Origin: Cloacimonetes bacterium UBA5614
GTDB taxonomy: Bacteria; Cloacimonadota; Cloacimonadia; Cloacimonadales; Cloacimonadaceae
Reading direction: 5' to 3'
DNA length: 64,000 bases
Assembly (NCBI GenBank): GCA_002424605.1
Contig: DIKQ01000002.1
Coordinates: 23,483 to 87,482, forward strand
The notes beneath the pieces were generated by a model. It ran no database searches, was not told the origin of the DNA, and saw only the letters and a list, made by a program, of their open reading frames with translations. The position numbers and the translations under genes were made by a program. Shown here in pieces: positions 3,059 to 22,752 of this stretch. Each line of letters opens with the position of its first letter. Position 1 is the first letter of the stretch.

Positions 3059-3066
3059 AGCTTATC

Positions 3067-4539: not shown

Positions 4540-4670
4540 TACTCCGTCCTATCTATCCGGTATGATTTTGATTTCCTTAGGGATTTATGATGAGAATCAC
4601 TTACGCTTCAATCTGAATGCAACTCTTCTGTCAATCATTTCTTTCCTTAGTTTAATACAATCCCGTCCTG

Positions 4671-4800: not shown

Positions 4801-4819
4801 TATAAGAATAGAGTGCTTA

Positions 4820-5217: not shown

Positions 5218-8200
5218 ATGAAAAAGCTCGTTATAGTTTTTATGCTGTGCCTGCTGGGTGCGCTTCATGCAGAAACCCGTATAGTATCGTTAACCGATGC
5301 AAGGAGAATTGCAGACAGCAATGCCGCCATATTATGGGGCGGAAATCTCGGATCTGCAGAACCAATCCCTTACTACGGACCGGATGATAAAATCATAGCT
5401 TACCATTTCAACTATGCCATTGGCAGACCTTTTCCTGATAAACATTCTCTTCAGCAAAGAAGCGGTGAGGCACTGTCATCCGGTAACCGAGACCTGGGCT
5501 GGGGCGTGGGCGAATTTGGCAATATGGTTATCGGTGCTAATCGTAATATGCCCGTCTTTGTGGAATATTCCAAATGTCTCTCACAGCAATACGCTTATGC
5601 CCAAAAACTGGAAGAAGCAGCTTCCCGCGAGTTTCCCAAAGGATACGAACTGACCAAAACATACTATCTGGGACTGGTAGATGTCTGGTATAGAATAAAC
5701 GACGGGAATGAAACCAAATATATAAATCTTGAACCCTATACCAAGGTAAAAACAGAGACGGAATTTCGTGAGATGATAAAAGACAAGATCTTTTTCTGGG
5801 AAAGGGACAGTTTTGAGGAGGAATGGGAATACCTGCTGGATAACGGCAACACTATGAGCAGAGCAGAAGTGATGATTCCCGGTGAAGAGCTGATGCCATA
5901 CTATGAGTGGAACTATGGCTGCACACCAACTTCCGGAGCCATGCTTTTTGCCTGGTGGGATGCCTATAAAGGTTATGGTAAACTGATAAAGCACCATTCA
6001 ACCAAATGGGATCCTGTGGTTGGTCGATACACACATCACGTTCCAGATATTCAGGGTATACTGGCAAACACTATGGATACAGGTTCTGATGGCACTACTT
6101 ATTCGTGGGACATTTGTGATGGAATGGTCGATGCTGCAAGTATTGTCGGATACAACTGTGAATCTGACGGTCTTTGGGCTCTTCACCATACTGTAGCAAC
6201 CTTATTTAATGGAATTCGAAATTCAATTGATAGTGGTTATCCAATATTGGTTGACACCTGGTCACATACGATGTGTGCGGTTGGTTATGGAACCTGGCCT
6301 TCCATGGTTCTCGTGCATGACCCTAATCTACCAGCCATTAGATTTCTTTCCAGGTCCTCGTTATGGCGATACTATTGGGCAGATTTTGAACCTTTAAATG
6401 ACTTCCACTCGGCTGAGTTGAATTTTCCCAATGGCGGGACCCAGTGGGAGAATAACTTTGGCGGCGAAACTCTGATATCCGGAATCTATTATGACATTAC
6501 CTGGAGTTCCACACTCAGTCCCAATGCCTATGCCAAGATTTATTATCATGACGAGGGCGGATCGACATCCAACAGATGGTTTCCCATAACCTTATACACT
6601 CCCAATGACGGACATTACCGGTGGCTGGTTCCAACTATTCAGGGTTGTATGTACGGTATCAATACTGACTATGCCAGAGTAAAAATCGAAATCTATGATA
6701 ACAACACCCATCAATTGCTCGCCGCAGACGGGAGCTACGGCAATTTAAAAATAAAAGGCGATTACGTCATGCCCTGGTTGAATGCCGCAGGTACCAATAT
6801 CAATACCAGTAAAATTTACACCAGAATAAATCATTCGACCAATAATAACTGGGGACTGATTGCTTTCCGTGGTTCAAATAGCAACATAGACATAGAGCTT
6901 TACCAGAGTCCGGATTTTTACAATCAGCTATATACCTCGCAATCCCCTTCAAGTTTGAATTATATGCTGATAAACAACTTCCAGCAAACACCCAACGCTT
7001 ATGGAGTCAAGTTTGCTACAGATGTATCATCTTTTCAGGGTAGTGCTGCATTTGTAACATCCAATGCTTCACAAATAAGTCCATATATAACATACAATTA
7101 TGACTGGGGTAATACTGATATAGCCAAAGTTTATCAGGTTTACCTGACACCCGGTCAATATTCTATTACAATGCACAGAATTGCCGGTTTTATGGATCTT
7201 GATATAGCTCTCTATGCGCCTGGCTCGGGTGTTTATACCTATAACCAGGCAGTAGCATATTCCAATAATTACGGTACCGTTGATGATGTAATTGTTTACA
7301 GGGTTACAACTGCCGGTTATTATGCTTTGGTTGTCAGTTGCAGTTCCGAGCATAACGGAGAATACTCAATTCTTATCGAAAACGCCGGTAAATGGCTGGG
7401 GACGGTAAGCAACAACTGGTTCAACCCCGCTAATTGGGTAGGCAATACCGTGCCGAATTTAACAAACGATGTGGTAATACCTCCCGATTGTCCCAATTAT
7501 CCCATTCTTTGGTCAGGAACTTATCCCGAGATTAAGTCCATAAGGATTGAATCGAATGCTTTTCTGACCATCGGAGCCACCGAGATGAATGTCCACCAGA
7601 GCATGCAGGTCTATGGCACTATCAACATGACCTCGAACAGCAGCGTTTTGAGTGTGGGAGAAAACCTGTATTGGGGAGCCGGTTCTTCTCTGGTAGGCAG
7701 TATTTACAATTACCAGATAGTATGTTACAAAAACTGGGACTTTGGATTAGGTTCCAATATTCAGATGACTTCGGGTACCGTGGTATTCTGGGGGGACGAG
7801 GACAGCTATGTCACCACCAGTTCTGCCACTTCCAGGTTCAATAATGTGACCATAAACAAACAATACACTCTCACAGGCAGGTCTGTCATCCATAGCGGAA
7901 ACTCATCCAATGACTGGAGAGTTAACGGCAACCTCTTAATATCAAGCAGCTATTCCACCCTGCGCTCAGATTCAGAGAAAAAAATCATTTTGCTGAACCC
8001 CATTACCAACAACGGGTATATCGAACTGGATAATGGCACCCTTGAACTTACTGCCAGCTGTTCCCTTCCCTATCTATCCACTGGCAACTATCTTAACAAT
8101 CTTGTAATCAGCACTAATGCAGTCAATGCCTTGCCTTCAAATTATAAAATAGTGGGCAATCTCACCATCAACAGCGGTGGCATCGATGCCAACACCAGAA

Positions 8201-11200
8201 CCATTACCTTGTCCGGTAACTTTATAAACAATGTCGGACCTTCAGGATTTGTCAAAGGAACCAGTACCGTAATCTTTAACGGATACGGAGACCAGAGATG
8301 CACCAATGGCAATTTCCACCGCATGGAAGTTAACAAGACGACCGGCAATGTCAAATTCACGGGAACAGGTGCCATTTCAAATGTGGATATCTACGACTGG
8401 ACAACCGGCGGTATAGAAGTAAATCAGGGAGCTCTGACCATTTTTGATTTAGCGGATAACGGCTTGTATGGCACCTACAAAATGACGGGAGGTACTCTAA
8501 ACGTTAATCAGGATAACTCCCAATATACAGACCTTAATGGCAGTCTGTATATCTACAGCGGGACCATGAATGTCTATGGTGGAAACGGAAACAGCTACTG
8601 GCCATATGCAGCCAATGCCCACATAGAAATGCATGGCGGAGTGCTGGATTTCAAAAACCGCGGGATTTACGTCTACAATTCTCCGGTCTTTTCGCTGACT
8701 ACAGAGCTTTTTGGGGGCAGAATCCGCACAGCTGGAAGTTTTCTCTGTTACCGTCCGGACTTCCAGCCTGCCGGGGAGTATTACCTTGAACTTTATGGCA
8801 GTACGGATGCCAACATCTATCTGCATAGTTCCGCCTCGGTACACTCTGTAATATTCAACAAAGGCAGCAACCGTTCGGAGGCCTGTCCTCCCGGGCTTGA
8901 CCTGATAAGACGGGACGGGGTCGACTTTCCCGCAGAACTGCGCAATAGTGAAAATGACTTGACCAGAATCAATCAGGTTAACCTCATCAGCAACGTCTAT
9001 ATCTTCGGTGACCTGATTATCGAATCAGGTACCGTCAACCTGAACAGCTACACCCTGACCACTGAAAGCGATACTGATGTAATAAATGGCACCATTCTAA
9101 TGAACCAGGCATCAGCCCGGTTAGTGACCTATGGCAGATTCCAGTGGGGAGAGAATGCCACACTGAACGTCACTGCAGGTGAAATGCATTTCTATTATCA
9201 TCTTACTATAGCCGAGAATTCTGTCTTCCAGATGGGTTCCGCCACGACAGCCAGATTCTGGACTGAGTTCAGCAAAATTATCAACTATGGTGCCAACTGC
9301 CAGTTCGGCTATGTTGTGCTGGAAGACGGATGCGAACTGGAAATCCTGGACTTTCAGCCGGTTACGATTACAAGCGGCCTGATCCTCCAGGGCGAAAGCA
9401 TTCTGCAGGTCAATGGAGTCCTCAATGTCATCGGCTATGTTGTTGTCTATGAATATGCCAATATCTATATCCGGGCAAACACGACAATCGATTATTACAT
9501 CAATTTGTATGGTGTCCTGACCATAGATAACTCCACTTTAACCTGTCACAGTTACTTATATAACATTGGCGGATCTCTGGTCTTGAATAATAATGGCAGT
9601 TGCATACTTGACAGGGCATTTGACAGCACTTACCATCAGATGGATGGAGTATATATTATAAACAGCGGTGTATTTGAAGTTACGAACAACGGTGTCCAGT
9701 TTACCAACGACTCCTATGTTACCATGTATGGCGGCACCCTCCGCACCGGCTGGAATTTTTGGGCAACCATAGCCAACAGGTTTAATCCGGCTGGCGGCAG
9801 TGTGGAGTTTATCGGAGACAGAAACGCTTCCCTCTGGTGCAATAATGGCAATTACTTCCATAATCTCATCTTCAGCAAACCCGGCACCAGGAGTGTTGGG
9901 ATAAACACGGATTTGCAGATTAATGGTGATTTAATCCACCAGAGCGGTTATTCTGCTATGAACGGATACAACATCCACATCATGAGGGACGTAATTATCC
10001 ACGCAGGCAGAATGGGTGCTTCCAGCACCGACCTGACTGATATCTATGTGGGCAGGAACTGGATAAAAAATGGCGGCTCCTTTGTTGCGGGAACTAATTC
10101 ATTAAACGGCTGCACTGTGCATCTCATCAGTGCCGGTGAAAATGCCGTCCTCTCTACTGAATCATTCTATAACCTTCACATCAACAAACAGAATGCGGTC
10201 GGAAACATTGTTTCGCTGCAGCCCTCTGCTACTGTGCAGGTAAATGGCGCTCTGGACATTGAGCGGGGAAAACTGAATGTGTTGAGTAACAGCATCCTGG
10301 ATGTCAACAACCATCTGACCATCATGCCCGGTGGCGGTTTGCGCCTTAGTGATACTTATACTGGCGGAACCCTTAAACTGGCAGGAAACTTTACCGACCA
10401 GAACACCACTATGGCTGGAGGTGATGGCTTTCAGGCATTAGACGACTGCCTGGTAATTCTGGATGGAACTGCAGACCAATACTTAACCGCTAATTACCCC
10501 TGGCTGCAATTCTATCATTTGTCCGTCGACAAATCCTCCGGCAGGGTTATGCCAAACAGCAACGTGACAATCGCCAGAGAACTGCACCTTGTAAGAGGAG
10601 AGTGGCATTATGGGCAACAGAATGTGGAGTTAGCCATTGGTACAGATTTGGTCGTAGAAGCGGCTGCATCTTTCAATTATTTTACGGGTTGTGTCCGGTT
10701 TGAAAGCTGGAGGGACAGCAATATCACAATCCTTGGTACCGCTAATATGGCTGCTATCCGCATTGATAAAGGCGGCTTCAACTTCAATCTTACCGGGAAC
10801 ACCGTCATTGGCGGAGAACCGGAAATCAGCCTCTACTCCGGTATCATCAACCTGAACGGCCACACCCTTCAGTTGGATGCAGGCCGTATATACATTGGCT
10901 CTGCTGTTTCCACAGTATTTCTGCAGGCGGGTTCTGTCCTCAGTTTGGGCAATGATTTTGTGGTTGAGGTCGTCAACGGCGGCAGATTCGTCACACTGGG
11001 AACGGAAGCCAATCCGGCTCTTGTCACCAGTCATAATGGTTACTATATCTTTATTGTGTTTGATAATGGTAAAATCGGCGGAAGCTGGGGCATCTATGAA
11101 AAGATGAGTGCTGAAGGAATTTGGTTTGAACAGGCATCCAGCCCGGTTGATAATACTTACCCCTGGACTTATCCAACCTTCCGCAATGGCGCACCCGGCG

Positions 11201-11637
11201 GTTCTCTGCTGACCTTTGACGGAGATAATGTCAGCAACATTGTAATTCAAAATCCCATCTTTCCTGCCAATACCTGGGGCAGTATTTACAATGTCGAAAA
11301 GTTTTCATCAATCGGTTCCGTCACTCTGCAGAATGCTACAGGCGCTTTTGCCGGTGCAGTTTTTGAAAGTGACATGTATAACACCGTTCACTGGACTTAT
11401 GTTCTTCAACCACCACAGAACTTTAAAGTTCAAGTAATTAATAATGAATTGGTTTTTTCTTGGGATGCTGTCCCTAATGTCAACGGTTACAACTTGTACT
11501 ACTGTTCAGACCCTGATTTCTCAAGCTCTCCGGTGGGAACCGTTTCTGACGGGGTAGCTGATACGTTCTTTTCTACTCCCTTAATCTGGTTCCCTGAGCC
11601 CTATATGTTTTTCAGGGTAACTGCATTTCAGGATTAA
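5218..11637 (+). CDS. Giant secreted protein 1 (2139 aa): signal peptide, papain-like cysteine peptidase, PPC-like domain, long beta-helix repeat region, C-terminal FN3-like domain
   Basis: RBS GAAGGAG lies before the ATG. Signal peptide is MKKLVIVFMLCLLGALHA. Cys motif YGCTPTSGAM (Cys235, nt 5920-5922) and His motif SHTMCAVGYG (His350, nt 6265-6267). Repeated GNLTINSGG / LSGNFINN type strands. C-terminus has ...SWDAVPNVNGYNLYY...FFRVTAFQD. Confidence 0.9.
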   Translation: MKKLVIVFMLCLLGALHAETRIVSLTDARRIADSNAAILWGGNLGSAEPIPYYGPDDKIIAYHFNYAIGRPFPDKHSLQQRSGEALSSGNRDLGWGVGEFGNMVIGANRNMPVFVEYSKCLSQQYAYAQKLEEAASREFPKGYELTKTYYLGLVDVWYRINDGNETKYINLEPYTKVKTETEFREMIKDKIFFWERDSFEEEWEYLLDNGNTMSRAEVMIPGEELMPYYEWNYGCTPTSGAMLFAWWDAYKGYGKLIKHHSTKWDPVVGRYTHHVPDIQGILANTMDTGSDGTTYSWDICDGMVDAASIVGYNCESDGLWALHHTVATLFNGIRNSIDSGYPILVDTWSHTMCAVGYGTWPSMVLVHDPNLPAIRFLSRSSLWRYYWADFEPLNDFHSAELNFPNGGTQWENNFGGETLISGIYYDITWSSTLSPNAYAKIYYHDEGGSTSNRWFPITLYTPNDGHYRWLVPTIQGCMYGINTDYARVKIEIYDNNTHQLLAADGSYGNLKIKGDYVMPWLNAAGTNINTSKIYTRINHSTNNNWGLIAFRGSNSNIDIELYQSPDFYNQLYTSQSPSSLNYMLINNFQQTPNAYGVKFATDVSSFQGSAAFVTSNASQISPYITYNYDWGNTDIAKVYQVYLTPGQYSITMHRIAGFMDLDIALYAPGSGVYTYNQAVAYSNNYGTVDDVIVYRVTTAGYYALVVSCSSEHNGEYSILIENAGKWLGTVSNNWFNPANWVGNTVPNLTNDVVIPPDCPNYPILWSGTYPEIKSIRIESNAFLTIGATEMNVHQSMQVYGTINMTSNSSVLSVGENLYWGAGSSLVGSIYNYQIVCYKNWDFGLGSNIQMTSGTVVFWGDEDSYVTTSSATSRFNNVTINKQYTLTGRSVIHSGNSSNDWRVNGNLLISSSYSTLRSDSEKKIILLNPITNNGYIELDNGTLELTASCSLPYLSTGNYLNNLVISTNAVNALPSNYKIVGNLTINSGGIDANTRTITLSGNFINNVGPSGFVKGTSTVIFNGYGDQRCTNGNFHRMEVNKTTGNVKFTGTGAISNVDIYDWTTGGIEVNQGALTIFDLADNGLYGTYKMTGGTLNVNQDNSQYTDLNGSLYIYSGTMNVYGGNGNSYWPYAANAHIEMHGGVLDFKNRGIYVYNSPVFSLTTELFGGRIRTAGSFLCYRPDFQPAGEYYLELYGSTDANIYLHSSASVHSVIFNKGSNRSEACPPGLDLIRRDGVDFPAELRNSENDLTRINQVNLISNVYIFGDLIIESGTVNLNSYTLTTESDTDVINGTILMNQASARLVTYGRFQWGENATLNVTAGEMHFYYHLTIAENSVFQMGSATTARFWTEFSKIINYGANCQFGYVVLEDGCELEILDFQPVTITSGLILQGESILQVNGVLNVIGYVVVYEYANIYIRANTTIDYYINLYGVLTIDNSTLTCHSYLYNIGGSLVLNNNGSCILDRAFDSTYHQMDGVYIINSGVFEVTNNGVQFTNDSYVTMYGGTLRTGWNFWATIANRFNPAGGSVEFIGDRNASLWCNNGNYFHNLIFSKPGTRSVGINTDLQINGDLIHQSGYSAMNGYNIHIMRDVIIHAGRMGASSTDLTDIYVGRNWIKNGGSFVAGTNSLNGCTVHLISAGENAVLSTESFYNLHINKQNAVGNIVSLQPSATVQVNGALDIERGKLNVLSNSILDVNNHLTIMPGGGLRLSDTYTGGTLKLAGNFTDQNTTMAGGDGFQALDDCLVILDGTADQYLTANYPWLQFYHLSVDKSSGRVMPNSNVTIARELHLVRGEWHYGQQNVELAIGTDLVVEAAASFNYFTGCVRFESWRDSNITILGTANMAAIRIDKGGFNFNLTGNTVIGGEPEISLYSGIINLNGHTLQLDAGRIYIGSAVSTVFLQAGSVLSLGNDFVVEVVNGGRFVTLGTEANPALVTSHNGYYIFIVFDNGKIGGSWGIYEKMSAEGIWFEQASSPVDNTYPWTYPTFRNGAPGGSLLTFDGDNVSNIVIQNPIFPANTWGSIYNVEKFSSIGSVTLQNATGAFAGAVFESDMYNTVHWTYVLQPPQNFKVQVINNELVFSWDAVPNVNGYNLYYCSDPDFSSSPVGTVSDGVADTFFSTPLIWFPEPYMFFRVTAFQD

Positions 11638-11760
11638 AAGCACCCATGTATAATTACTGTGATGGTTGTTGTAAGCACAATGGATTTCTTCTGAAATCGC
11701 TTTTGTGCATGATAAGATTGTGATTCTAAGCATAGTGTAACAACTATCAAATCAAACTGC

Positions 11761-11797
11761 GGCTGCCGCGCTCTCCTTGCCGGCAGCCGTTTTTTTT
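11761..11797 (+). terminator. Rho-independent terminator of giant gene 1
   Basis: GGCTGCCG ... CGGCAGCC stem followed by T8. Same sequence as 22792-22828. Confidence 0.85.
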
Positions 11798-11812
11798 CTA
11801 TACTAATAAAAG

Positions 11813-11930
11813 TTGTTTCCTGCTTCTTCCTTGCTTAGATGTCCCGAAGATGTCCCGAAGCCGGCCGGGTTTTCTTCGGTTATCTTCGGGACATCTCCGC
11901 GACAACTCACTGAGAAAGTAAAGAGAAACA
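11813..11930. repeat. Element A copy 2
   Basis: tgtttcctgcttcttccttgcttaGATGTCCCGAAGATGTCCCGAAGccggccgggttttCTTCGGttatCTTCGGGACATCtccgcgacaac, near-identical to copy 1. Confidence 0.85.
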
Positions 11931-11971
11931 GATAAGTTGACTGGTTACATCCAATGCTGTGCAAATCAAGA

Positions 11972-12000
11972 TTGACATAATATCTAAAAGAGATTAATTA
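11972..12000 (+). promoter_or_regulatory. Candidate sigma-70-type promoter for the kinase/EBP operon
   Basis: TTGACA, 17 nt, then TAATTA, about 55 nt upstream of the ATG at 12054. Confidence 0.3.
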
Positions 12001-12053
12001 GGATGTATGGTAATATTGATTAGTTTTTTTGTTTGGAACGTTTATGGTGAAGT

Positions 12054-14306
12054 ATGCCTAAAACTATTATAAGTAATAGTTTAGTGTCTTCATCATCTGA
12101 CTGCAGTGCCGGGGAGAAGGCCGGCGAGTTACTGCAGAAAGCTGTTTCGTTTTTGAAAAACAATCCGGAAGAAGCGTTGCGTTATGCCGTCAAGGCAGAA
12201 CAGATTGCAAAAAAAAATAATCAATCCTATGAACTGGCAATGGCAGGGAAGATTGCCGGGAATGTACACTTTAACAGAAACGCTAATGACCAGGCGCACA
12301 AAAAATACCAATCAGCCCTCAAACCAGCCCTGCAAGCAGGCGATGATAAGCTTTTGGGGGATTTGCACTATAACCTGGGCAGGACCTTTACACGCAAAAA
12401 AGATTACCAGCCCGCCCTTGAGCATTTGCTGAAATCTCTGGAATACAGGAAAAAACTACCCACCAGAGAAGATGAAAGCGCTTCGCTGAACCATATCGGA
12501 CAAGTTTACTGGGAACTGAAAGACTATGACAAGGCAAGCGACTTTTTCCGGAACTCTACGGAATTGATTAACCCGGACGAACAAATTTTGCTTGCTTCCG
12601 CAGTGTATAACAATCTCGGGAATGCCCTGCTGAAAACCGGGAACACGGATAAAGCGCTGGAAGCATACCTTGTTTCGCTGCATTGCAAGGAAAAGCTGGG
12701 CAAGGACGACAGTATCGCCACAGCTTACATCAGTCTGGGAAACCTTTATTTTACCTGCGGGGAGTTTTACAAAGCGGCGGAGTTTTATCTCAAGGCAAGT
12801 AAAAAGTTTGATAAACCCGGATACCGCAAAATGGCAGCCACGGCTTTTTCCAACCTTGGCTCCACGTACAACGAACTGGGAAATGACAAGCTGGCTCTTC
12901 AGTTCCACAGAAAAGCGCTAAAGGTTTTTGATACAGAAAAACTGCCGGAAGAAGAAGCCAAATCGCTTAATAACATCGGGAACGTCTATCTGAAACGGCA
13001 GGATTATAACAAAGCGCTGAGCTATTTCCGGCAAGCGCTGGAAATCAAGCTGATGAAGGGCGATAATGAAAGCCTGGCAATTGCCTACAACAATCTGGGC
13101 AGTGTATTCTGCCTGAAAGGAAACCTGAAAGCTGCAGCGGAGAACTTTGCCATGTCGGTAAGCCATGCGGAACAAACCGGCAACAAGAAAATGCTGTTGG
13201 AGAATTACAGCCGTTTGGGAGACGTCTCTGCCGCTCTTGGCGACTACGAGAATGCCTTTGAATTTCTCAGGAAACACTGCAAGGCAGATTTGGAGCTTTA
13301 CAGCGAGGAATCCAGGAACAGATTGACTGAGACGATGGTGCGCTTTGACGTGGAGCTCAAAACCAGCGAGATTAATCAACTCACTGAACTGCAGAAAGTC
13401 CAGAAAGAAATGCTGGACAGGCAGATAAGAGACAAGCTGCGTTATATGAATCTGTACCGCTCCAAACAACGTGAAGTCAAAAAACGCGAGCAGGCCCAGA
13501 AAGCTTTGCAGGCATTGAACAAGGATTTGGAAGTCCGCATCGAAAAAGCCCTGGCTGAATATAAAGTTCAGCAGGAACTTATCATCCAGAAATCAAAACT
13601 GGAATCCCTTGGCGTGCTGGCAGCAGGCATCGCGCATGAGGTTTACCAGCCGCTTTCCGCCATCTCCATCAGCATTAACAATATGCGCAATAAAGCCCAG
13701 AAAAATGAGCTGACCAGCCAATATCTTAGTAATAAATTTAACCGGATTTCGGAAGACATACAGCGCATCCGCCAGGTAATCGAGCACGTACGTCTGTTTT
13801 CCCGCGAGCAGAAAGATAACCATCTGGAAAGGATAGACATTCACCAGACCCTCAAGGATGCCCTGAGGCTGATAGGATATGATTTGAATAGGCAAGGCAT
13901 CAAAACCAGCCTGAATCTGGCGGAGTCTTCCCCTGTTTCTGTGGGCAGTAAATTCAAGCTGGAACAGGTGTTTCTGAACCTGATATCCAATGCCAGGGAC
14001 GCAGTATTGGAAAAGCAAGCAGGCAAATCCGCCTATGAACCGCAGATAGAAATCAGGACAAGCACCCGCAACGCAAGCGTCGAGATTGACTTCACAGATA
14101 ATGGTACCGGAATGAGCCAGGCAGTGACTGACAAGATGTTTGACCCGTTTTTCACCACCAAAAATCCGGAAAAGGGAACGGGTCTGGGGCTTTCCATCAG
14201 CTACGGCATCATCAGGGAAATGGAAGGTGAGATATCCGTACTGAGCGAACCTGATGAGTTCACAAGAATCACAGTTAAGCTTCCTGACCTGCAGGAGAAA
14301 AGATGA
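12054..14306 (+). CDS. Cytoplasmic TPR-repeat sensor histidine kinase
   Basis: About 400 aa of TPR-like repeats, then a coiled coil. H-box LAAGIAHEVYQPL, N-box NLISNARDA, G1 DNGTGM, G2 GTGLGLS. No hydrophobic TM segment seen. Confidence 0.85.
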   Translation: MPKTIISNSLVSSSSDCSAGEKAGELLQKAVSFLKNNPEEALRYAVKAEQIAKKNNQSYELAMAGKIAGNVHFNRNANDQAHKKYQSALKPALQAGDDKLLGDLHYNLGRTFTRKKDYQPALEHLLKSLEYRKKLPTREDESASLNHIGQVYWELKDYDKASDFFRNSTELINPDEQILLASAVYNNLGNALLKTGNTDKALEAYLVSLHCKEKLGKDDSIATAYISLGNLYFTCGEFYKAAEFYLKASKKFDKPGYRKMAATAFSNLGSTYNELGNDKLALQFHRKALKVFDTEKLPEEEAKSLNNIGNVYLKRQDYNKALSYFRQALEIKLMKGDNESLAIAYNNLGSVFCLKGNLKAAAENFAMSVSHAEQTGNKKMLLENYSRLGDVSAALGDYENAFEFLRKHCKADLELYSEESRNRLTETMVRFDVELKTSEINQLTELQKVQKEMLDRQIRDKLRYMNLYRSKQREVKKREQAQKALQALNKDLEVRIEKALAEYKVQQELIIQKSKLESLGVLAAGIAHEVYQPLSAISISINNMRNKAQKNELTSQYLSNKFNRISEDIQRIRQVIEHVRLFSREQKDNHLERIDIHQTLKDALRLIGYDLNRQGIKTSLNLAESSPVSVGSKFKLEQVFLNLISNARDAVLEKQAGKSAYEPQIEIRTSTRNASVEIDFTDNGTGMSQAVTDKMFDPFFTTKNPEKGTGLGLSISYGIIREMEGEISVLSEPDEFTRITVKLPDLQEKR

Positions 14307-15673
14307 ATACGCAACACATTCTGATTCTGGACGACGAACCCCGCCTGAGAGAGGAATTACTTGAGTTCCTGACTGATGAAGGATACAAATGCTTTGAAGC
14401 CAGCTCTCCTTCCGAAGCTATGAAAGTAATCAGGGCAAACAGGATAGACATAGCCATAGTGGACATCAATCTGCCTGAAAAAGATGGCATTGCAGTCTTG
14501 AAGGAAATCAAGGAATATGACGAGGATATTGAAGTCCTGATGATAACCGGACAGGGAGATATGGATCTTGCCATCCGTTCGATGCGGTCCGGAGCTGCTG
14601 ATTTCTTTAACAAACCCATTCAGCCAGAAGAAGTCCTGCAGGCAGTGGAACGGAGCAAGCGTTTCATCAATCTCACCCGGCGCTGCCAGCATTTACGCAA
14701 CAATTATGACAGGGTGTTTCATGAACTGCAGGATAATCTGGGATTGCAGATGCTGGGCACCAGTAAAGCCATCAGGGAGATAAAGTCCGATATTGAGACC
14801 GCAGCAAAAAACCCTGACACAGCAGTCCTGATCAGCGGTGAAAGCGGTACGGGAAAGGAACTGGTTGCTCGCAGCATCCATCACCTGAGCGCCCGGAAAC
14901 ATCACTATTTCTATGCGGTTAATTGCGCTGCTATTCCGGAAAACCTGTTTGAAAGCGAGTTCTTTGGATATACCAAAGGTGCCTTCACAGGCGCTGCCGC
15001 CAATAAGCAGGGCTGGTTTGAAATTGCCGACAAAGGAACGCTGTTTTTAGACGAAATCGGCGATATGCAGCCCTTTATGCAGGCGAAACTGCTGCGTGTG
15101 ACGGAAGACGGAGTGGTTCACAGATTGGGGAGCAACAGGGATATCCAGGTCAATGTCAGATTGATTTCCGCCACTAACCGGGATATAGCAGATTTGGTTG
15201 ATAAGGGGATTTTCAGGCAGGACCTCTATCATCGCCTGAACACTATACAGATACATATCCCTCCCCTGAGGGAACGCCGGGAAGACATCCCTGTCCTGGT
15301 GGAACACTTCCTGCGTCATTTTACCCAAAAGACCGGAAAAGCCATCCCGGAAATTGAATCAGGCCTTTTGGACAAATTGATGCAATATCCCTTCAAAGGC
15401 AATGTCAGGGAGTTGAAGAATATGCTGGAAAGGGCTGTCATCCTCTGCGATGGCTCCCGGCTCAGCCAAAAGCACTTTAACTCGCTTGGCAACGACAAAT
15501 CAAACCACCATTCACCATCTGGCGAACCTGAAAATCTGAACTTGGAATCCCTGGAAAAAGAAGCGGTGAAAAAAGCTCTGCAAAGCTGCGGCAACAACAA
15601 ACAGCAGGCGGCAAAACTACTCAATATTACCTGGCAGTCACTGGAACGCAGAATCAAGAAACACGGGCTCTGA
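14303..15673 (+). CDS. NtrC-family sigma-54-dependent response regulator (REC, AAA+, Fis-type HTH)
   Basis: REC domain (ILILDDE, VDINLP). Walker A GESGTGKE, sigma-54 contact loop GAFTGA, Walker B LFLDEIG. C-terminal HTH AAKLLNITWQSLERRIKK. ATGA overlap with the kinase gene. Confidence 0.92.
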   Translation: MNTQHILILDDEPRLREELLEFLTDEGYKCFEASSPSEAMKVIRANRIDIAIVDINLPEKDGIAVLKEIKEYDEDIEVLMITGQGDMDLAIRSMRSGAADFFNKPIQPEEVLQAVERSKRFINLTRRCQHLRNNYDRVFHELQDNLGLQMLGTSKAIREIKSDIETAAKNPDTAVLISGESGTGKELVARSIHHLSARKHHYFYAVNCAAIPENLFESEFFGYTKGAFTGAAANKQGWFEIADKGTLFLDEIGDMQPFMQAKLLRVTEDGVVHRLGSNRDIQVNVRLISATNRDIADLVDKGIFRQDLYHRLNTIQIHIPPLRERREDIPVLVEHFLRHFTQKTGKAIPEIESGLLDKLMQYPFKGNVRELKNMLERAVILCDGSRLSQKHFNSLGNDKSNHHSPSGEPENLNLESLEKEAVKKALQSCGNNKQQAAKLLNITWQSLERRIKKHGL

Positions 15674-15862
15674 GCCGAACTCAGGATAGATAGCTATACG
15701 AAAGCGGATACCTCCGTAATCGGATAGTGTTAGCATAAAGTGATGACAGACAGCAGGATAGACTGCATTTCTGCGGATGTTTGACGGAATCGGATAGTCT
15801 TTTTGAGGCGGAAATCCGGGACGCGGACAGCTATTGTGCTGCAATATAGTGTGTTAAGGTTT

Positions 15863-15878
15863 TGGAACAAAGGTTGTT
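15863..15878 (+). promoter_or_regulatory. Candidate sigma-54 (-24/-12) promoter, TGGAAC-N5-TTGTT
   Basis: Lies about 25 nt upstream of the GTG at 15902, which is preceded by RBS GAGGTGA. Positionally conserved with 5036-5051. Confidence 0.45.
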
Positions 15879-15901
15879 AATACTAATAGCAGAGGTGAGA
15901 T

Positions 15902-16327
15902 GTGAAAGTATTGGTAACCAAGTCCAGCCTTTATGAACGGGATGAACTGCAGGAGTTTTTCCAGGACCATTCCTGGGAGCCCACTTTTGCAGAAGAGTCC
16001 AAAACGATGTATCAGATGCTGTCGCGGGAGGATTTTGATACAGTCCTGTTTAATCTCAGCAGTACGGATGACTTTGCTGCCATCAGGTACATTAACAGGA
16101 ACTATCCGAATATCCGGGTGATAGTTTCCACCGATGACAGGCTGGTATCGACCATCCGCAATGTGCGGGCAGGCAAGTTCACGGTAACGGGCCATCTGGA
16201 AAAGATGAATCTGCTGGAAAAGCTGTTCCCGGAATCGGACACAGGCGAAACTGCTGATACAGGAAAGTCGGAAATAGAAGAAGTCAGAAATATAAAAATC
16301 AACAAGAGAGTGAAGGAGAAGTTATGA
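15902..16327 (+). CDS. Stand-alone pseudo-receiver (REC-like fold lacking phospho-acceptor residues)
   Basis: GTG start after GAGGTGA. By eye it aligns to CheY-like receivers, but the acidic pair is TK (KVLVTKSS), the phospho-Asp position is Asn (VLFNLSS), and the conserved Lys is absent. ATGA overlap with giant gene 2. Confidence 0.65.
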   Translation: MKVLVTKSSLYERDELQEFFQDHSWEPTFAEESKTMYQMLSREDFDTVLFNLSSTDDFAAIRYINRNYPNIRVIVSTDDRLVSTIRNVRAGKFTVTGHLEKMNLLEKLFPESDTGETADTGKSEIEEVRNIKINKRVKEKL

Positions 16328-19300
16328 GAAAGCTCGTTATAGTTTTTTTGCTGTGCCTGCTGGGTACGCTTTATGCTGAAACCCGCATAGTGTCGTTAAC
16401 CGATGCAAGGAGAATTGCAGACAGCAATGCTGCCATATTATGGGGCGGCAATCTCGGTTCTGCAGAGCCAATACCTTACTACGGACCGGATGATAAAATC
16501 ATTGCTTATCATTTCAACTATGCCATCGGCAGACCTTTTCCTGATAAACATTCTCTTCAACAAAGAAGCGGAGAGGCATTTTCATCAGGTAACCGAGATC
16601 TTGGCTGGGGCGTGGGCGAATTTGGCAATATGGTTATCGGTGCCAATCGCGGCATGCCAGTGTTCATAGAATATGGCAAAGGGCTTTCCTACATATTGGC
16701 TATGGGAAACAAGCTAGAGGAAGTTGCCCGTAAAGAATTTCCTGCAGGATACACTCTGGAAAAAACCTATTATCTTGGTTTGGTCCATATCTGGCACAAG
16801 ATAACCTCCGGCACAGAGGTGCGCTATATTAATCTGCAGCCATATACAAAGGTTATTGGAGAATCTGAGTTCCGGGAAATGGTAAGCACCAGAGCTTTCT
16901 TTTGGGAACGCGGTAATTTTGATGAAGAATGGACCACTTTTTTAGACAATGATGGGACCATCGGACGCTCTGATGTCTGGGTTGTTGGTGAAGAATATAT
17001 GCCGTTTTACGAATGGAGTTATGGCTGCACTCCCACTGCAGCAGCAATGATATGCGCCTGGTGGGACCACTACAAAGGTTATTCCCGTCTGATAGATTAT
17101 CATATTTCACGAGGAGACCCTGTACAGGATGGCTATGATCACCATGTTCCCACTATACAAGGCTTACTTGCTGCTCATATGGATACTGATCCATCTACCG
17201 GAGGAACAGCGGTCAGTGATATCAGTGATGGTATTATAAATGCAGTGGAATCTTTAGGCTATGAATGCTCTTCCGACGGTTTAATTGGCTGGAACGAAGA
17301 CAGCAACGATGTTTATTGGGAAATCATTGATCAGATTGATGGTAATCATCCCTGTATGGTCGGAATTGATAGACATTCTATAGCTGGTGTGGGGTACAAT
17401 CTGACAACCCGGTCAATAATTATTCATGATTCTAACCGTTCTTATGCCTACCAAATTACCCGTTCAATGCTCGAAAGATATCAGTGGGTGTCCCTTCAGC
17501 CTATCAGTAACAATTACTATCTGGAAATCACCTACCCCAATGGAGGCGAAGTCTGGGGTTCAAATATTGGTGGCGGAACTCTTATTTCAGGTGTCTATTA
17601 CGACATTACCTGGAATGGAATGTTGAGTTCAGAGACATATGCCAAGCTATATTACCATCACGAGGGAGGACAAAATCCAGATCGCTGGTTTCCAATCACA
17701 ACATTTACTCCCAATGACGGGCATTATCAATGGCTGGTACCCATCCCGCAAGATTGTGTATTTGGGATTAATACTGATTACAGTAGGGTTAAGATCGAAA
17801 TATATGATTTGAATACCCATGAAATGCTAGCCGCTGATGGCAGTTTTGGCAATTTCAAAACAGGGGGAAGTTTTACTGTTCCTGAACTTACTTTGAATGC
17901 AACTCATTTATTTGGTGGCAATAACCTTTTTGTCGCTCCACAAACTGAAACAGGTACCTGGGGCGCAGTTATTGTAAAAGAAGATCCATTAATGTTGGGA
18001 ACAAAGATTGAATTATTTAATGGTCCGGACTTTTATCAGGAGTATGTAGAATCAATATCCAGCGAGAAAATCAATTATGTTATGATTAACAATCATCAGT
18101 TGCTACCCAGAGAATATGGAGTCAGAATATCAAATATGTATAGTACAGATAATGTATCAACATGGGCATCTAATTCCTCAATACCCGGTCTAATATTGAA
18201 TCCCGGGACTCCGCACACCGATATTTGGACTTCAGGTGTTTTAGGCAAAGTATTTAATGTGTATCTAAATCCCGGGAGTTACTTTTTTGAAATGACAATG
18301 GATTCTTATATGAATCTGGATTTTGCTTTGTTTACTCCATTCGGAGCAGGTGGTATCTATACTTATAATCAAGCAGCTGCTTACTCCAGAAATTCACTTT
18401 TTGGGGGTAGTGAAGGATTTTTCTACACAGTCCCCGAAGCTGGATACTATGGTCTGATTGTTACAGCAAGGGTAAATGGCGTTGGCACTTATAACATCAA
18501 CATCCACAATCCCGGTAAATGGCTGGGAACTGCCGATACCAACTGGTTCAATCCTGCCAACTGGATTGGCAATTCCGTGCCGAATTTTACAAACGATGTG
18601 GTAATACCAGGCGGATGTCCCAATTATCCCATTATTCTGACAGGAACTTATCCTGAGATAAAGTCTATATCTGTTGAAGCGAATGCTTTACTCACCATAG
18701 GCGCTACCGAAATGAATGTGCACCAGAGCATGCAGGTCTATGGCATTATCAACATGACCTCGAACAGCAGCGTTTTGAGTGTGGGTGAAAACCTGTATTG
18801 GGGAGCCGGTTCTTCTCTGGTAGGCAGTATTTACAATTACCAGATAGTATGTTACAAAAACTGGGACTTTGGATTAGGTTCCAATATTCAGATGACTTCG
18901 GGAACCGTAGTATTCTGGGGAGATCAGGACAGCTATGTCACCACCAGTTCTGCCACTTCCAAGTTTAATAATGTTACCCTGAATAAAATCACGGCAGGGC
19001 GTTCAGTAATCCATAGTGAATATTCCAGCAATGACTGGAGGATATACGGCAACCTGACAATCTCAAATTCCAACACCACGTTAAGTTCGGAAACAGATAA
19101 GAAAATCCAGATATATAGCAGTATTACCAATAATGGGCATATCCAGTTGGATAACGGAACAGTCGATTTCAAGATAGGAAGCTCATTGCCTGTCCTCAAT
19201 ACAGGCGATTACTTTTATGGCTTGACCATCAGCACTACTACCGCTTTATCTCTGCCTTCCAATTACAGCATCAGTGGTGACCTCACTATCTCCAGTGGAG

Positions 19301-22300
19301 GCATCAATGCCAACACCAGAGCCATTACCTTGTCCGGCAACTTCATAAACAATGTGGGACCTGCAGGGTTTGTCAAAGGCACCAGTACCGTTATCTTTAA
19401 CGGCGGCGGAGACCAGAGATGCACCAATGGCAATTTCTATCGTATGGAGATTGCAAGCCAGTACTGCAATGTTATATTCACGGGAGCCGGAGCAACATCA
19501 ACCTGCGATATCTATGACTGGACGGCCGGTTCATTGGAAGTGGAGCAGGGAACTCTAAACATTTTAGATTTAGCGGATAACGGCTTGTATGGCAATTACA
19601 TGTTAACGGGTGGTACTCTTAATGTTAATCAGGATAACTCCCAATACACAGACCTTAATGGCAGTCTGTATATCTACAGTGGGACCATGAATGTCTATGG
19701 CGGAAACGGCAACAGCTACTGGCCATATGCAGCCAATGCCCATATTGAAATGCACGGCGGAGTGCTGGATTTCAGGAATCGCGGCATCTATATTTATAAT
19801 TCTCCCACGTATACACTGACCACAGAGCTCAGGGGTGGTATAATCCGTACAGCCGGAAGCTTCCTCTGTTACAGGCCGGATTTCTGGTTTGCTGATGAGC
19901 ATTACATTGAGCTCTACGGGTCTACAGATGCCAATATCTATCTGCACAGTTCCGCCGGTTTTCACTCATTTATCTTCAACAAAGGTTCTGCCCGGGCGGA
20001 TGCCTGCCCTGCCGGCCTTGACCAGATAGAGAGGGAAGGCGTGGAACTGCCGGTTGAACTGCGTAGCAGCAACAGCAGCGCTACCCGGGCAAATACCGTT
20101 AACCTCATCAGCAACGTCTATATCTTCGGTGACCTGATTATTGAATCAGGTACCGTCAACCTGAACAGCTACAACCTGACCACTGAAAGCGATTCTGATG
20201 TCATGGGTGGCACCATTATTATGAACCAGGCATCAGCCCGGTTAGTGACTTATGGCAGATTCCAGTGGGGAGAGAATGCCGTTCTCAATGCTACGGCAGG
20301 TGAGATGCATTTCTATCACAGTCTGACTTTTGCTGAGGACTCAGTCTTCCAGATGGGTACGGGTACTACAGCCAGATTCTGGACTGAGTTCAATACCATT
20401 GCCAGTTACGCAGACATCTGCCAGTTTGGGAATGTTGTCCTGGAAGACGACTGCGAAATGGAAATCCTGAATTATCAGCCCATCACGATAACGGGTAATA
20501 TGTCTCTGCTTGGTGAAAGCATCCTTCGGGCAGATGGCGTTATCAACATTAGTGGCAGCTTTACGGACAATGAATATGCCTACACGTATATCCAGACAGA
20601 TATGACGGTTAATCAGAACATCCTGCTATACGGTGTCCTGACTATAGAAAACTCCACTCTCACCTGTCATGGCAACTTCCAGAACCTTGCCGGAAGCCTT
20701 GTCCTTAGCAATAATGGTAACTGCATAATTGACAGACCTTTTGACAGCACCTACCAGTTGATTGAGGGAGGCTTGATTATCAGTAGCGGTGTGTTTGAAG
20801 TCACTAACAATGGTATCCAGTTTACCAATGACGCCTATCTTGCTATGGATGGCGGCACCATCCGCACCGGCTGGAATTTTGTGGCAACCAGTTCCAATGT
20901 CTTCAATCCCGATGGCGGAAGCGTGGAGTTTATCGGCGACAGGAATGCCACAATTGAATGCAACAACGGCAATTATTTCTATGATATCGTCTTCAACAAA
21001 CCCATCACAACCAATGTTGTTTCGGTTCTGACTGACCTGAGTGTAGGGCTTGACTTCACCGTACTGGGTGGAAATCCGGCTTTAAACGGTAACAACATTT
21101 ACATTAGTCGTGATATGATAATCAATGGTGGCAGGGTCTCTGCCTCCAGTAACTCTCTTACGGACATCTATGTCGCCAGGAACTGGATTAACAATGTCGG
21201 AACAACTGCGTTTTCCGAGGGCACCACTCCGTTAAACTATTCCACCGTACATTTCTACGGTGCAGAAAACTCCATTGTATCGACCGAGACGTTTTATGTG
21301 TTGCGTATCAATAAAAGCACCTCAGGCAGCTACACTGTGACTCCTCAGGCCGGGGCAACGATTACTGCCAAGGGTCCGGTGGAGATTGTAAGGGGTAATT
21401 TGCAGCTCAGGGATAATTGCATCCTTGATGTTAATAGCAGTATCAATATCTCTGCTGGCGGGGGCTTGGACCTTAGTGACACATCGTCTTACGGAACGCT
21501 TTATCTGACGGGAAATCTTTATGATGCAAATACTACTTTCGGCTCAGGAGTCGGGTTTGATGCCATTGCCGAATGCCATGTTATCCTTGATGGCGGTGGA
21601 GACCAGATTATTGACGCTAACCGCAGCAATGTTCAGTTCTACAATCTCACAGTCAACAAACCCTCCGGAAGGGTTATGCCCCATAAAAATGTCTCCACCT
21701 CCGGCTACCTTCATCTGATTTCAGGTGAATGGAATTATGGAGTGGCAGGCTTGGTCAAATTAATCATGACCAACCTGATTATAGAAGCTGCTGCTTCCTT
21801 TACTGATAATACCGGCATAGTTCTTTTTGATGGCTGGATTGTCAGCGAAGCAAGAATTCTTGGCAATGCCTCGCTGGGAACTATCAACATTGACAAAGGT
21901 GCGTATAGCTTCAACCTGAGCGGGAATGTGTCCTTGGCAGGAACCACCACCCTGAACCTGATCAGCGGTAATATCAATTTAAACGGGTACACTCTGCAGA
22001 TGACTGGCACCCTAAATCTGGCAAACTATCTTTATCTGCAGCCAAGCTCCGTCCTCAGCCTGGGAAACAACTCCGTGCTGAATGTCAACAACGGCGGCAG
22101 GTTCATTACGCTGGGAACGCAAGCCAATCCTGCCCTGGTCACCAGTCATGACGGCTATTATGCCTTTAACGTGAACGATTATGGGAAAATCGGCGGTAGC
22201 TGGGGAATCTACGAAAAGATGAATATCAATGGAATTCTCTTTGCTCAAAGGACAAGCATTGACAGCGAATATCCCATGCAGTACCCGACCTTCCGCAACG

Positions 22301-22752
22301 GTGCTCCCGGCGGTTCCCTGCTGCGCGTTAATTGGGCTGCTGCCAGTAACAACGTAATCCAGAATCCCATCTTCCCTGCCAATACCTGGGGAGGGCTCTA
22401 TAACGTCAGGAAGGCAGGCGGCACCGGTTCCATCACTCTCCAGAATGCCACCGGTGCTTTTTCCGGAGCAGCGTTTGAATATGACCCCTATGGCACTGTA
22501 CACTGGACCTATCCGGTCGCTCCGGGAGTTCCCCAGAACGTTCAGATTATCCGGGTCTCAGGCAATGCAGTGCTTTCCTGGAATGCTGTTGCCGGAGTTA
22601 CGGGATACAAAATATACCGTGCTGTTTCTCCGGAACTGATGGGTGAAGCCATACTGGTCGGAACCACCGCACAGACCTCTTTCACGGATACGGTTCATCC
22701 GTTGGGTTCACATACTGCGGGATTCTACTTTGTGAAGTCTTATGTAGATTAA
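16324..22752 (+). CDS. Giant secreted protein 2 (2142 aa), paralog of 5218-11637
   Basis: Same architecture as protein 1. Signal peptide MRKLVIVFLLCLLGTLYA, Cys motif YGCTPTAAAM, His motif RHSIAGVGYN, beta-helix repeats, C-terminal FN3-like ...SWNAVAGVTGYKIYR...FYFVKSYVD. Confidence 0.9.
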   Translation: MRKLVIVFLLCLLGTLYAETRIVSLTDARRIADSNAAILWGGNLGSAEPIPYYGPDDKIIAYHFNYAIGRPFPDKHSLQQRSGEAFSSGNRDLGWGVGEFGNMVIGANRGMPVFIEYGKGLSYILAMGNKLEEVARKEFPAGYTLEKTYYLGLVHIWHKITSGTEVRYINLQPYTKVIGESEFREMVSTRAFFWERGNFDEEWTTFLDNDGTIGRSDVWVVGEEYMPFYEWSYGCTPTAAAMICAWWDHYKGYSRLIDYHISRGDPVQDGYDHHVPTIQGLLAAHMDTDPSTGGTAVSDISDGIINAVESLGYECSSDGLIGWNEDSNDVYWEIIDQIDGNHPCMVGIDRHSIAGVGYNLTTRSIIIHDSNRSYAYQITRSMLERYQWVSLQPISNNYYLEITYPNGGEVWGSNIGGGTLISGVYYDITWNGMLSSETYAKLYYHHEGGQNPDRWFPITTFTPNDGHYQWLVPIPQDCVFGINTDYSRVKIEIYDLNTHEMLAADGSFGNFKTGGSFTVPELTLNATHLFGGNNLFVAPQTETGTWGAVIVKEDPLMLGTKIELFNGPDFYQEYVESISSEKINYVMINNHQLLPREYGVRISNMYSTDNVSTWASNSSIPGLILNPGTPHTDIWTSGVLGKVFNVYLNPGSYFFEMTMDSYMNLDFALFTPFGAGGIYTYNQAAAYSRNSLFGGSEGFFYTVPEAGYYGLIVTARVNGVGTYNINIHNPGKWLGTADTNWFNPANWIGNSVPNFTNDVVIPGGCPNYPIILTGTYPEIKSISVEANALLTIGATEMNVHQSMQVYGIINMTSNSSVLSVGENLYWGAGSSLVGSIYNYQIVCYKNWDFGLGSNIQMTSGTVVFWGDQDSYVTTSSATSKFNNVTLNKITAGRSVIHSEYSSNDWRIYGNLTISNSNTTLSSETDKKIQIYSSITNNGHIQLDNGTVDFKIGSSLPVLNTGDYFYGLTISTTTALSLPSNYSISGDLTISSGGINANTRAITLSGNFINNVGPAGFVKGTSTVIFNGGGDQRCTNGNFYRMEIASQYCNVIFTGAGATSTCDIYDWTAGSLEVEQGTLNILDLADNGLYGNYMLTGGTLNVNQDNSQYTDLNGSLYIYSGTMNVYGGNGNSYWPYAANAHIEMHGGVLDFRNRGIYIYNSPTYTLTTELRGGIIRTAGSFLCYRPDFWFADEHYIELYGSTDANIYLHSSAGFHSFIFNKGSARADACPAGLDQIEREGVELPVELRSSNSSATRANTVNLISNVYIFGDLIIESGTVNLNSYNLTTESDSDVMGGTIIMNQASARLVTYGRFQWGENAVLNATAGEMHFYHSLTFAEDSVFQMGTGTTARFWTEFNTIASYADICQFGNVVLEDDCEMEILNYQPITITGNMSLLGESILRADGVINISGSFTDNEYAYTYIQTDMTVNQNILLYGVLTIENSTLTCHGNFQNLAGSLVLSNNGNCIIDRPFDSTYQLIEGGLIISSGVFEVTNNGIQFTNDAYLAMDGGTIRTGWNFVATSSNVFNPDGGSVEFIGDRNATIECNNGNYFYDIVFNKPITTNVVSVLTDLSVGLDFTVLGGNPALNGNNIYISRDMIINGGRVSASSNSLTDIYVARNWINNVGTTAFSEGTTPLNYSTVHFYGAENSIVSTETFYVLRINKSTSGSYTVTPQAGATITAKGPVEIVRGNLQLRDNCILDVNSSINISAGGGLDLSDTSSYGTLYLTGNLYDANTTFGSGVGFDAIAECHVILDGGGDQIIDANRSNVQFYNLTVNKPSGRVMPHKNVSTSGYLHLISGEWNYGVAGLVKLIMTNLIIEAAASFTDNTGIVLFDGWIVSEARILGNASLGTINIDKGAYSFNLSGNVSLAGTTTLNLISGNINLNGYTLQMTGTLNLANYLYLQPSSVLSLGNNSVLNVNNGGRFITLGTQANPALVTSHDGYYAFNVNDYGKIGGSWGIYEKMNINGILFAQRTSIDSEYPMQYPTFRNGAPGGSLLRVNWAAASNNVIQNPIFPANTWGGLYNVRKAGGTGSITLQNATGAFSGAAFEYDPYGTVHWTYPVAPGVPQNVQIIRVSGNAVLSWNAVAGVTGYKIYRAVSPELMGEAILVGTTAQTSFTDTVHPLGSHTAGFYFVKSYVD

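Follow-up and report, generated by a model that had tools for sequence, protein, structure and literature searches.

Genes and control regions of the two units

The window, a 64,000-nucleotide stretch of contig DIKQ01000002.1 from Cloacimonetes bacterium UBA5614, contains two genes for giant proteins, each preceded by a short motif resembling the -24/-12 core of a sigma-54-dependent promoter. The DNA is a metagenome contig (JGI 3300002220, ENA ERZ27315067) of a Cloacimonadaceae bacterium, and the Rho protein encoded in it shares 94% identity with that of MAG JAWOHU01. An earlier reading of the letters, made without database searches (the sequence-only reading), had pointed out these motifs as TGGAAC-AAAGG-TTGT at 15863-15877 and TGGAAC-AAAGA-TTGA at 5036-5050, and both were located exactly there. 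Extended by one base, the core of unit 2 is TGGAAC-aaagg-TTGTT (15863-15878, + strand; GG at 15864-15865, -12-region G at 15876), with T at the position of the consensus C of the -12 box (15877). That of unit 1 is TGGAAC-aaaga-TTGAT (5036-5051, + strand). Both motifs are very probably the cores of sigma-54-dependent promoters and part of a functionally constrained promoter-enhancer module. This reading rests decisively on orthologous loci in Cloacimonadaceae; taken by themselves, the window motifs are weak.

Two overlapping genes (both + strand) lie upstream of the unit 2 motif. The first (12054-14306) encodes a sensor histidine kinase, its translation matching TPR repeats, HisKA and HATPase_c in Pfam; with no obvious transmembrane segment, the kinase is probably cytoplasmic. 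Its stop codon overlaps the start codon of the second gene (14303-15673), which encodes an NtrC-family enhancer-binding protein (EBP) with a REC domain, an AAA+ Sigma54_activat domain and an HTH_8 domain (Pfam E-values of 3.5e-28 for Response_reg, 3.1e-66 and 1.4e-11, respectively). The sequence-only reading had credited this EBP with an intact GAFTGA loop, rightly so: the motif stands at residue 226, and DD10-11, D54, the Walker A motif GESGTGKE and DEIG are also intact. GAFTGA and Walker A are invariant in five homologues. By accepted criteria, an intact GAFTGA motif is what marks out a true sigma-54 activator (PMC3162934). From the end of the EBP gene to the TGG of the -24 element there are 190 nt.

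Transcription is predicted to start at about 15889 in unit 2 and at about 5062 in unit 1. A ribosome-binding site (RBS), AGAGGTGA (15891-15898, + strand), begins about 2-3 nt past the predicted unit 2 start and serves the GTG start codon at 15902; both had been claimed to follow just after the predicted start, and both are present in the sequence. The GTG opens a small gene for a pseudo-receiver (15902-16327, + strand; 141 aa), whose stop overlaps the start of giant gene 2 (16324-22752, + strand; 2142 aa). Giant gene 1 (5218-11637, + strand; 2139 aa) begins about 156 nt past the predicted start site of unit 1 and has an RBS to itself.

As the sequence-only reading had it, the two motifs occupy equivalent sites of a duplicated control block, where they fall in the same columns (about 4815-5125 and 15640-15950). 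The block extends from the final codons of the activator gene to a point about 50 nt inside the small gene that follows. With about 85% identity, the unit 1 and unit 2 blocks represent a recent duplication. Because of this, the match between the two window copies says little, and their agreement, which had been put forward as conservation, is uninformative. The loose pattern TGG-N8-TTG occurs in the window at chance level (54 matches against 52.7 expected).

The core element and probable enhancer in orthologous cassettes

Further loci were reached via homologues of the small protein (L004, L005/L006 and L007) and via homologues of the activator (L120, L121, L122 and L124/L125). L120 lies on a 3.4 Mb contig, CAXXDU010000002.1. 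The order of TPR kinase, NtrC-type activator, small gene and giant gene is kept in L004, L005, L007, L120, L121, L122 and L124, with kinase orthologues found in the same position in L004, L007, L120, L121, L122 and L124. Across the cassette loci, identity of the activator to that of the window ranges from 93% down to 59%. A single-query search of genome contigs with the EBP detected seven loci, and the promoter was seen in none of them. Among these, L092 is cut within the EBP gene, and in L088 (Bacteroidales) what follows is a terminator and unrelated DNA.

The footprint comprised eight promoter copies from seven Cloacimonadaceae lineages (the two window copies and six orthologous loci), anchored on TGG. 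The GG-N10-G element was found at the homologous position in all six further loci and was the sole conserved core sequence there; thus, the motif is more than a chance match. The only core positions invariant in all eight copies are TGG.A(C/T)-N5-(T/C)TG(A/T)T, and the spacer and both flanks are free to vary. These invariant bases are the positions contacted by sigma-54, at the canonical spacing. The GG-N10-G spacing, noted earlier for the two window motifs, held across all eight copies. Outside the window, the element reads TGGAAC-aaagg-TTGA in L004, TGGAAC-agtag-TTGA in L007, TGGAAT-actaa-TTGA in L120, TGGCAC-tgtta-TTGT in L121, TGGAAC-aaatc-CTGA in L122 and TGGCAC-gattc-TTGA in L124. Variants of the -24 box (TGGAAC in five copies, TGGCAC in two and TGGAAT in one) stay within the sigma-54 consensus, TGG and the A at the fifth position being invariant. 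In the five full operons (unit 2 of the window, L004, L007, L120 and L122) the -12-region G lies 24-26 nt from the start codon. A conservation profile of four lineages peaks at the palindrome boxes described below, at the -24 region and at the start codon. The family pattern TGGNAY-N5-YTGWT has six matches in the window against 1.8 expected, and the two flagged sites are the only intergenic ones.

A pattern extended into the flanks, TTAAG-N5-TGGAAC-N5-TTGNTNATAC, was tried and rejected. Its 4 genome and 15 metagenome matches were at chance level and none was accompanied by the cassette; the TTAAG and ATAC flanks are not conserved.

Scoring against a sigma-54 matrix, which the sequence-only reading had suggested as a check, gave a divided result. 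The position-specific scoring matrix was built from 29 intergenic Salmonella sites enriched in sigma-54 chromatin immunoprecipitation (ChIP) (PMC3844500, Table 3). With this enterobacterial matrix the window sites scored 8.3-9.1 bits, against 16-23.5 bits for the training promoters and 17.8 bits for the L124 orthologue, and they ranked 8th and 10th among the 127,966 window positions scored. The orthologous sites spanned 7.7-17.8 bits on the same matrix, and three of them ranked first in their loci: the L124 site TGGCACGATTCTTGATTA, which lies inside the training range, the L121 site (12.25 bits) and the L122 site (8.8 bits). The L120 site ranked second.

The absence of the -12 C had been noted in the sequence-only reading as a weakness of the call. 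The C is indeed missing from all eight copies (replaced by A in six and by T in two), and the -12-region G is invariant. Since the C is absent throughout, another base at this position is a property of the promoter family and not a sign of decay. Its absence lowers the match but is not disqualifying, and the C is not strictly defining, given the precedents in Salmonella (TTGT and TTGA) and P. putida (TTGAAT). The Salmonella sites enriched in sigma-54 ChIP include pspA TGGCACGCAAATTGTATT (TTGT), pspG (...TTGTAAG) and STM0649.S TGGCACGCCTTTTGATTA (TTGA), all with a base other than C at -12 (PMC3844500). In vitro, the sigma-54 RNA polymerase of P. putida transcribed 64,966 templates, and TTGAAT was one of the two -12 consensus motifs recovered from them (PMC11997794). 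A canonical -12 box is apparently also in use in the present lineage, to judge from L092, a related Cloacimonadota metagenome-assembled genome (MAG; histidine kinase 48% and EBP 71% identical), where TGGAAC-AACAA-TTGCAT (1755-1772, - strand; 14.1 bits) stands before an HlyD gene. The systematic lack of the -12 C could be a form of promoter tuning, for example through weaker locking of the closed complex.

The sequence-only reading had recognised the core promoter of the control region and overlooked its probable enhancer, which consists of three TATCCG-N4-CGGATA palindromes upstream of every promoter copy (8/8). Counted from the first G of GG, the palindrome centres of all eight copies lie 161.5-163.5, 143.5-147.5 and 73.5-75.5 bp upstream. 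The DNA between the palindromes is not alignable among distant lineages, yet the offsets are fixed. With at most one mismatch, TATCCG-N4-CGGATA had no occurrence outside these sites in the nine sources scanned, the window included. The candidate upstream activator sequences (UAS) of unit 2 are UAS-a, TATACGAAAGCGGATA (15695-15710; one mismatch; centre 161.5 bp upstream of GG), UAS-b, CCTCCGTAATCGGATA (15711-15726; two mismatches; centre 145.5 bp upstream), which forms a conservation peak of the four-lineage profile, and UAS-c, TTGACGGAATCGGATA (15781-15796; centre 75.5 bp upstream), whose right half is perfect and whose left half is degenerate. Those of unit 1 are UAS-a (4867-4882; one mismatch), UAS-b (4883-4898; two mismatches) and UAS-c, ATTACGGATTCGGAGA (4954-4969; four mismatches), the most decayed of the six window sites, all of which are given on the + strand. 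Perfect palindromes were found at the UAS-c offset in L007, L120 and L121. The usual UAS range is about 70-150 bp upstream (PMC3844500). Judged by its spacing, the layout is the standard geometry of an enhancer-dependent promoter, and the activator would be expected to bind the palindromes.

The octamer TCCGTAAT occurs six times in the window against 1.3 expected; the copies at 4885, 4954 and 15713 are parts of UAS-b or UAS-c in the two control regions. Another copy was found in the divergent intergenic region 46380-46623, before a gene for a protein with a type IX secretion system (T9SS) tail, together with three GCGTAATG repeats.

Weighing the sigma-54 reading against its rivals

Several observations weigh against reading the two motifs as sigma-54 promoters. 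Within the window alone the match is suggestive only, being weak and not significant. Seven window positions outscore the flagged sites on the Salmonella matrix, which is enterobacterial and thus from a phylum other than Cloacimonadota. The window sites are off consensus at two positions (A for C in TGGCAC, and T or A for C at -12), and the predicted leader of unit 2 measures only about 13 nt. The strongest 15% of the P. putida library promoters show TTGCAT only (PMC11997794), and the present promoters may therefore be intrinsically weak. The rpoN gene was found neither in the window nor in the 10 kb of contig on either side. A literature search for Cloacimonas or Cloacimonadota together with sigma-54 or rpoN found no sigma-54 paper on the phylum. 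On the presence of sigma-54 itself, GAFTGA-type activators are known to track it across genomes, and it is near-universal in lipopolysaccharide-bearing diderm bacteria (PMC3162934); from the conserved GAFTGA-type activators we infer that rpoN is present in the genome.

Possible signals for a housekeeping promoter at the same place are, for example, -35 TTAAGG with -10 TAATAC (18-nt spacer) or TTGGAA-N16-TAATAG, in which case TGG...TTG would be incidental to a sigma-70-type promoter. The flanking TTAAG and ATAC are kept in the window copies, L004 and L007, and unit 1 carries a TTGACT box at 5057, just past the -12 element. However, TTAAG and ATAC are lost in L120, L121, L122 and L124, unlike TGG.A and TTG. 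A consensus scan detected no sigma-70-like site on the + strand of 15674-15901, and the TTGACA box that is common in intergenic DNA of this organism is absent from the same interval. We consider a sigma-70-type promoter very unlikely. An extracytoplasmic function (ECF) sigma factor is a still poorer candidate, and that one should recognise GGAAC as its -35 box appears extremely improbable. AAC-containing -35 motifs are typical of ECF sigma factors, GGAAC resembles them, and the window has a gene for an ECF-type sigma factor (57193-57690; Sigma70_r2/r4, 165 aa). The AAC is not kept, however, as the box is GGCAC in L121 and L124 and GGAAT in L120. At the expected position of a -10 box, 16-17 nt downstream, there is no conservation (AATAGC, TATACC, ACTGCA, TGACTT), and the conserved TTG lies only 5 nt past the first box.

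Alternatively, the motifs might be operators of another DNA-binding protein, or chance matches, with the true promoter elsewhere and the palindromes possibly serving as repressor sites. The scores of the window sites (8-9 bits, with seven positions higher) and the chance frequency of the loose pattern would fit such an explanation. We nevertheless regard it as unlikely. The conserved positions are the sigma-54 contact positions base for base, at the exact GG-N10-G spacing, and the orthologous sites drift toward the full consensus, with the L124 site reaching 17.8 bits. In addition, the element always stands beside a GAFTGA-type EBP and at a fixed distance from three palindromes, and the copies have no further promoter-like signal in common. 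Transcription from a point further upstream might yield a structured RNA leader or riboswitch, which would account for a conserved block directly 5' of the start codon. We give this reading scarcely any credence: RNAalifold gives no consensus pairs for the four closest copies (0 kcal/mol), no Rfam family matches the region even at E up to 1, and the substitutions are non-compensatory.

As regards the housekeeping promoter signals of the window in general, the 12 copies of TTGACA in 5.1 kb of intergenic DNA amount to an enrichment of about 5-fold, and the box precedes at least 10 genes; examples lie at 11972, 22983, 25133, 32463, 33826, 38782 and 46587. A -10 consensus was sought downstream of the window TTGACA boxes and gave no signal, and the Bacteroidetes-type motif TAnnTTTG showed no clear enrichment in intergenic DNA. 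The housekeeping promoter of this lineage may be unusual.

Pseudo-receiver, giant proteins and proposed circuit

The description of the small gene product as a pseudo-receiver, already given by the sequence-only reading, was confirmed. A profile of seven small-protein members aligned with the EBPs' own REC domains over 109 columns (hhalign probability 97.5%, E 7.9e-12); the Pfam Response_reg match of the small protein is weak (E 0.0047). Profile-profile comparison was used as the AlphaFold model was too poor for searching (pLDDT 50.6). In all seven members the acidic DD pair is changed to K/Q-S/P/A, and the position of the phospho-acceptor Asp falls in a two-residue gap beside N or C. Scans of genome and metagenome contigs with the small protein or its alignment gave no match.

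The equivalence of the two motif positions extends to the core promoter of unit 1, but its small gene is dead, a decay that the sequence-only reading had overlooked. The remnant (5075-5160, + strand) shows TAA straight after the GTG, its RBS is gone and codons ~17-108 have been deleted from its interior; at about 5136-5160 it still matches the codons for PESDTGET. The region as a whole (4815-5165) is a decayed control region that retains ~30 nt from the end of the activator gene, together with the UAS and the core promoter. The location of this copy upstream of the kinase gene suggests that kinase, activator and cargo were duplicated together and that the first kinase and activator genes were then lost. 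A TTGACT box, present in unit 1 only, lies immediately downstream of the -12 element (5057-5062) and may give giant gene 1 some activator-independent transcription.

If both motifs are sigma-54 promoters, the following circuit can be proposed. The cytoplasmic TPR histidine kinase (12054-14306) would phosphorylate the NtrC-type activator (14303-15673), which would oligomerise on the three palindromes about 74, 145 and 162 bp upstream of GG. Through DNA looping, the GAFTGA loop of the activator would meet the sigma-54 holoenzyme, present as a closed complex on TGGAAC-N5-TTG(T/A). ATP hydrolysis would then open the promoter, with starts at about 15889 in unit 2 and about 5062 in unit 1. The output of unit 2 would be the pseudo-receiver and the translationally coupled giant secreted protein, and that of unit 1, the decayed duplicate, its giant protein only. 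A chain from kinase to EBP to sigma-54 promoter to pseudo-receiver and giant protein had been predicted before; the footprint, the GAFTGA motif, the overlap of the kinase and EBP genes and the REC homology agree with it. Its predicted parts are the transfer of phosphate from kinase to activator, the binding of the activator to the palindromes, the dependence on sigma-54 and the sites where transcription starts. One speculative role for the pseudo-receiver, whose gene would always be transcribed first, is that of a decoy which cannot be phosphorylated and which may act back on the kinase or the activator.

Both giant proteins have signal peptides. They are 61% identical overall, and giant protein 2 has a weak Peptidase_C39_2-like region around GCTPT; the Pfam match itself, obtained on the paralogue of giant protein 2, is weak (E 0.003). 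Identity between the two is mosaic, with near-identical blocks (about residues 1-110, 770-880 and 1000-1330) alternating with blocks of about 45-50%. This pattern points either to gene conversion between the paralogues or to parts of the protein being under diversifying selection.

The cargo behind the regulatory cassette differs by lineage. The giant protein of L122 (>2300 aa) has Propeptide_C25 and Peptidase_C25 domains (gingipain-like), that of L121 (3530 aa) has InhA-like MAM matches, and that of L120 resembles the window giant over its C-terminal ~1400 residues only. More speculatively, the cassette may have acquired different giant exoproteins as its cargo, namely C39-like ones in the window, a Peptidase_C25/gingipain-like one in L122 and the 3530-aa MAM-like one in L121. 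We tentatively suggest, with some doubt, that the unit might be an undescribed portable expression cassette of Cloacimonadaceae, in which a soluble TPR kinase and an NtrC-type activator are combined with a rigid enhancer of three palindromes, a sigma-54 promoter that never has the -12 C and a pseudo-receiver. Such a cassette of giant protein and pseudo-receiver was not met in the literature found, no literature search having been aimed at it.

The giant-protein alignment detected one locus, L114, in a Cloacimonadaceae MAG. Its giant homologue is 41-49% identical, and neither a small gene nor a UAS nor a sigma-54-like site was found there. The L114 giant gene is divergent from a gene for an unrelated, RtcR-like activator with a CARF-like N-terminus and GSFTGA (2618-4168, - strand), and the intergenic DNA contains a palindrome with perfect 20-bp arms (4430-4474), CATTACGGACCCAATACGGA / TCCGTATTGGGTCCGTAATG.

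The known sites closest to the present promoters are the Salmonella/E. coli sites with a base other than C at -12, namely pspA (TGGCAC-GCAAA-TTGT), pspG (TGGCAT-GATTT-TTGT) and STM0649.S (TGGCAC-GCCTT-TTGA) (PMC3844500, Table 3). Both groups share GG-N10-G, a T or A where the -12 C would be, AT-rich DNA past -12 and a dedicated EBP encoded nearby. The L124 site matches STM0649.S at 15 of 18 positions. Unlike these sites, five of the eight copies here also have A as the fourth base of TGGCAC, and the phylum is Cloacimonadota. Whereas the known sites serve phage-shock and sugar-utilisation targets, the predicted targets here are a pseudo-receiver and giant secreted proteins, known from sequence alone.

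In its regulators the system resembles the NtrC/glnAp2 type (NtrB-NtrC, ZraS-ZraR, AtoS-AtoC), which likewise pairs a REC-AAA+-HTH_8 regulator with a histidine kinase and has several dyad-symmetric candidate activator sites ~70-165 bp upstream of the -24 element. It differs from that type in its kinase, a soluble TPR protein and not an NtrB-like or membrane sensor, in the very rigid spacing of its three TATCCG-N4-CGGATA sites and in the first gene of the target operon, which encodes a receiver-like protein without phosphorylation capacity. The giant signal-peptide proteins with protease-like domains, encoded beside a HlyD/MacB-type exporter, recall the sigma-54 'controller of the bacterial exterior' of Francke et al. 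2011 (PMC3162934). The text of that survey was found to make no mention of Cloacimonadota.

The kind of switch is ordinary and of textbook type. The interest lies in the phylum, the rigid three-site enhancer, the systematic lack of C at -12, the pseudo-receiver and the interchangeable giant cargo. The proposed circuit is a concrete one for Cloacimonadota, which are uncultured and abound in anaerobic digesters and tailings ponds. It would tie giant secreted protease-like proteins to a dedicated two-component/sigma-54 switch, which fits a role of sigma-54 in governing the cell exterior (PMC3162934). TATCCG-N4-CGGATA is defined here as a candidate activator site, and the natural series of -24/-12 variants (7.7-17.8 bits) provides material on the tolerance of sigma-54, especially at the -12 C.

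Upstream of the divergent HlyD/MacB operon of the window, at 4616-4639 (- strand), a perfect TTGACA overlaps TGACAG-AAGAG-TTGCATT, and the exporter may belong, or may once have belonged, to the same regulon as the cassette. As a sigma-54 candidate, the site at 4633 (- strand; TGACAG-N5-TTGCATT) outscores the flagged sites with 9.7 bits. It was set aside, as the second G is missing and the site coincides with the TTGACA box. Between the HlyD promoter region and unit 1, at 4700-4770, lies an inverted repeat that is long and almost perfect, GATGTCCCGAAG...CTTCGGGACATC, and within which GTCCCGAAG recurs. The inverted repeat is kept in L004, and its Rfam match is at chance level only.

Not all members of the kinase/activator clade are linked to the cassette. 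In L119, an activator 68% identical to that of the window and a TPR kinase are followed by convergent housekeeping genes, and the small gene, the giant gene and the UAS palindrome are all absent from its 11.8 kb. In L004 the activator was called as two ORFs (103 and 346 aa; 4401-5772), as was the giant gene (1203 and 699 aa; 6423-12075), which points to frameshifts, either by sequencing error or by pseudogenisation.

Upstream of the window kinase gene, at 11693-11796, Rfam gives a weak match to the atoC RNA motif, which is known to precede sigma-54 activator genes. At 26 bits (E 0.46) the match stays below the gathering score of 50 and is probably due to chance. A PhoR/PnpS-like histidine kinase gene of the window overlaps the ECF-type sigma gene that follows it (55775-57690).

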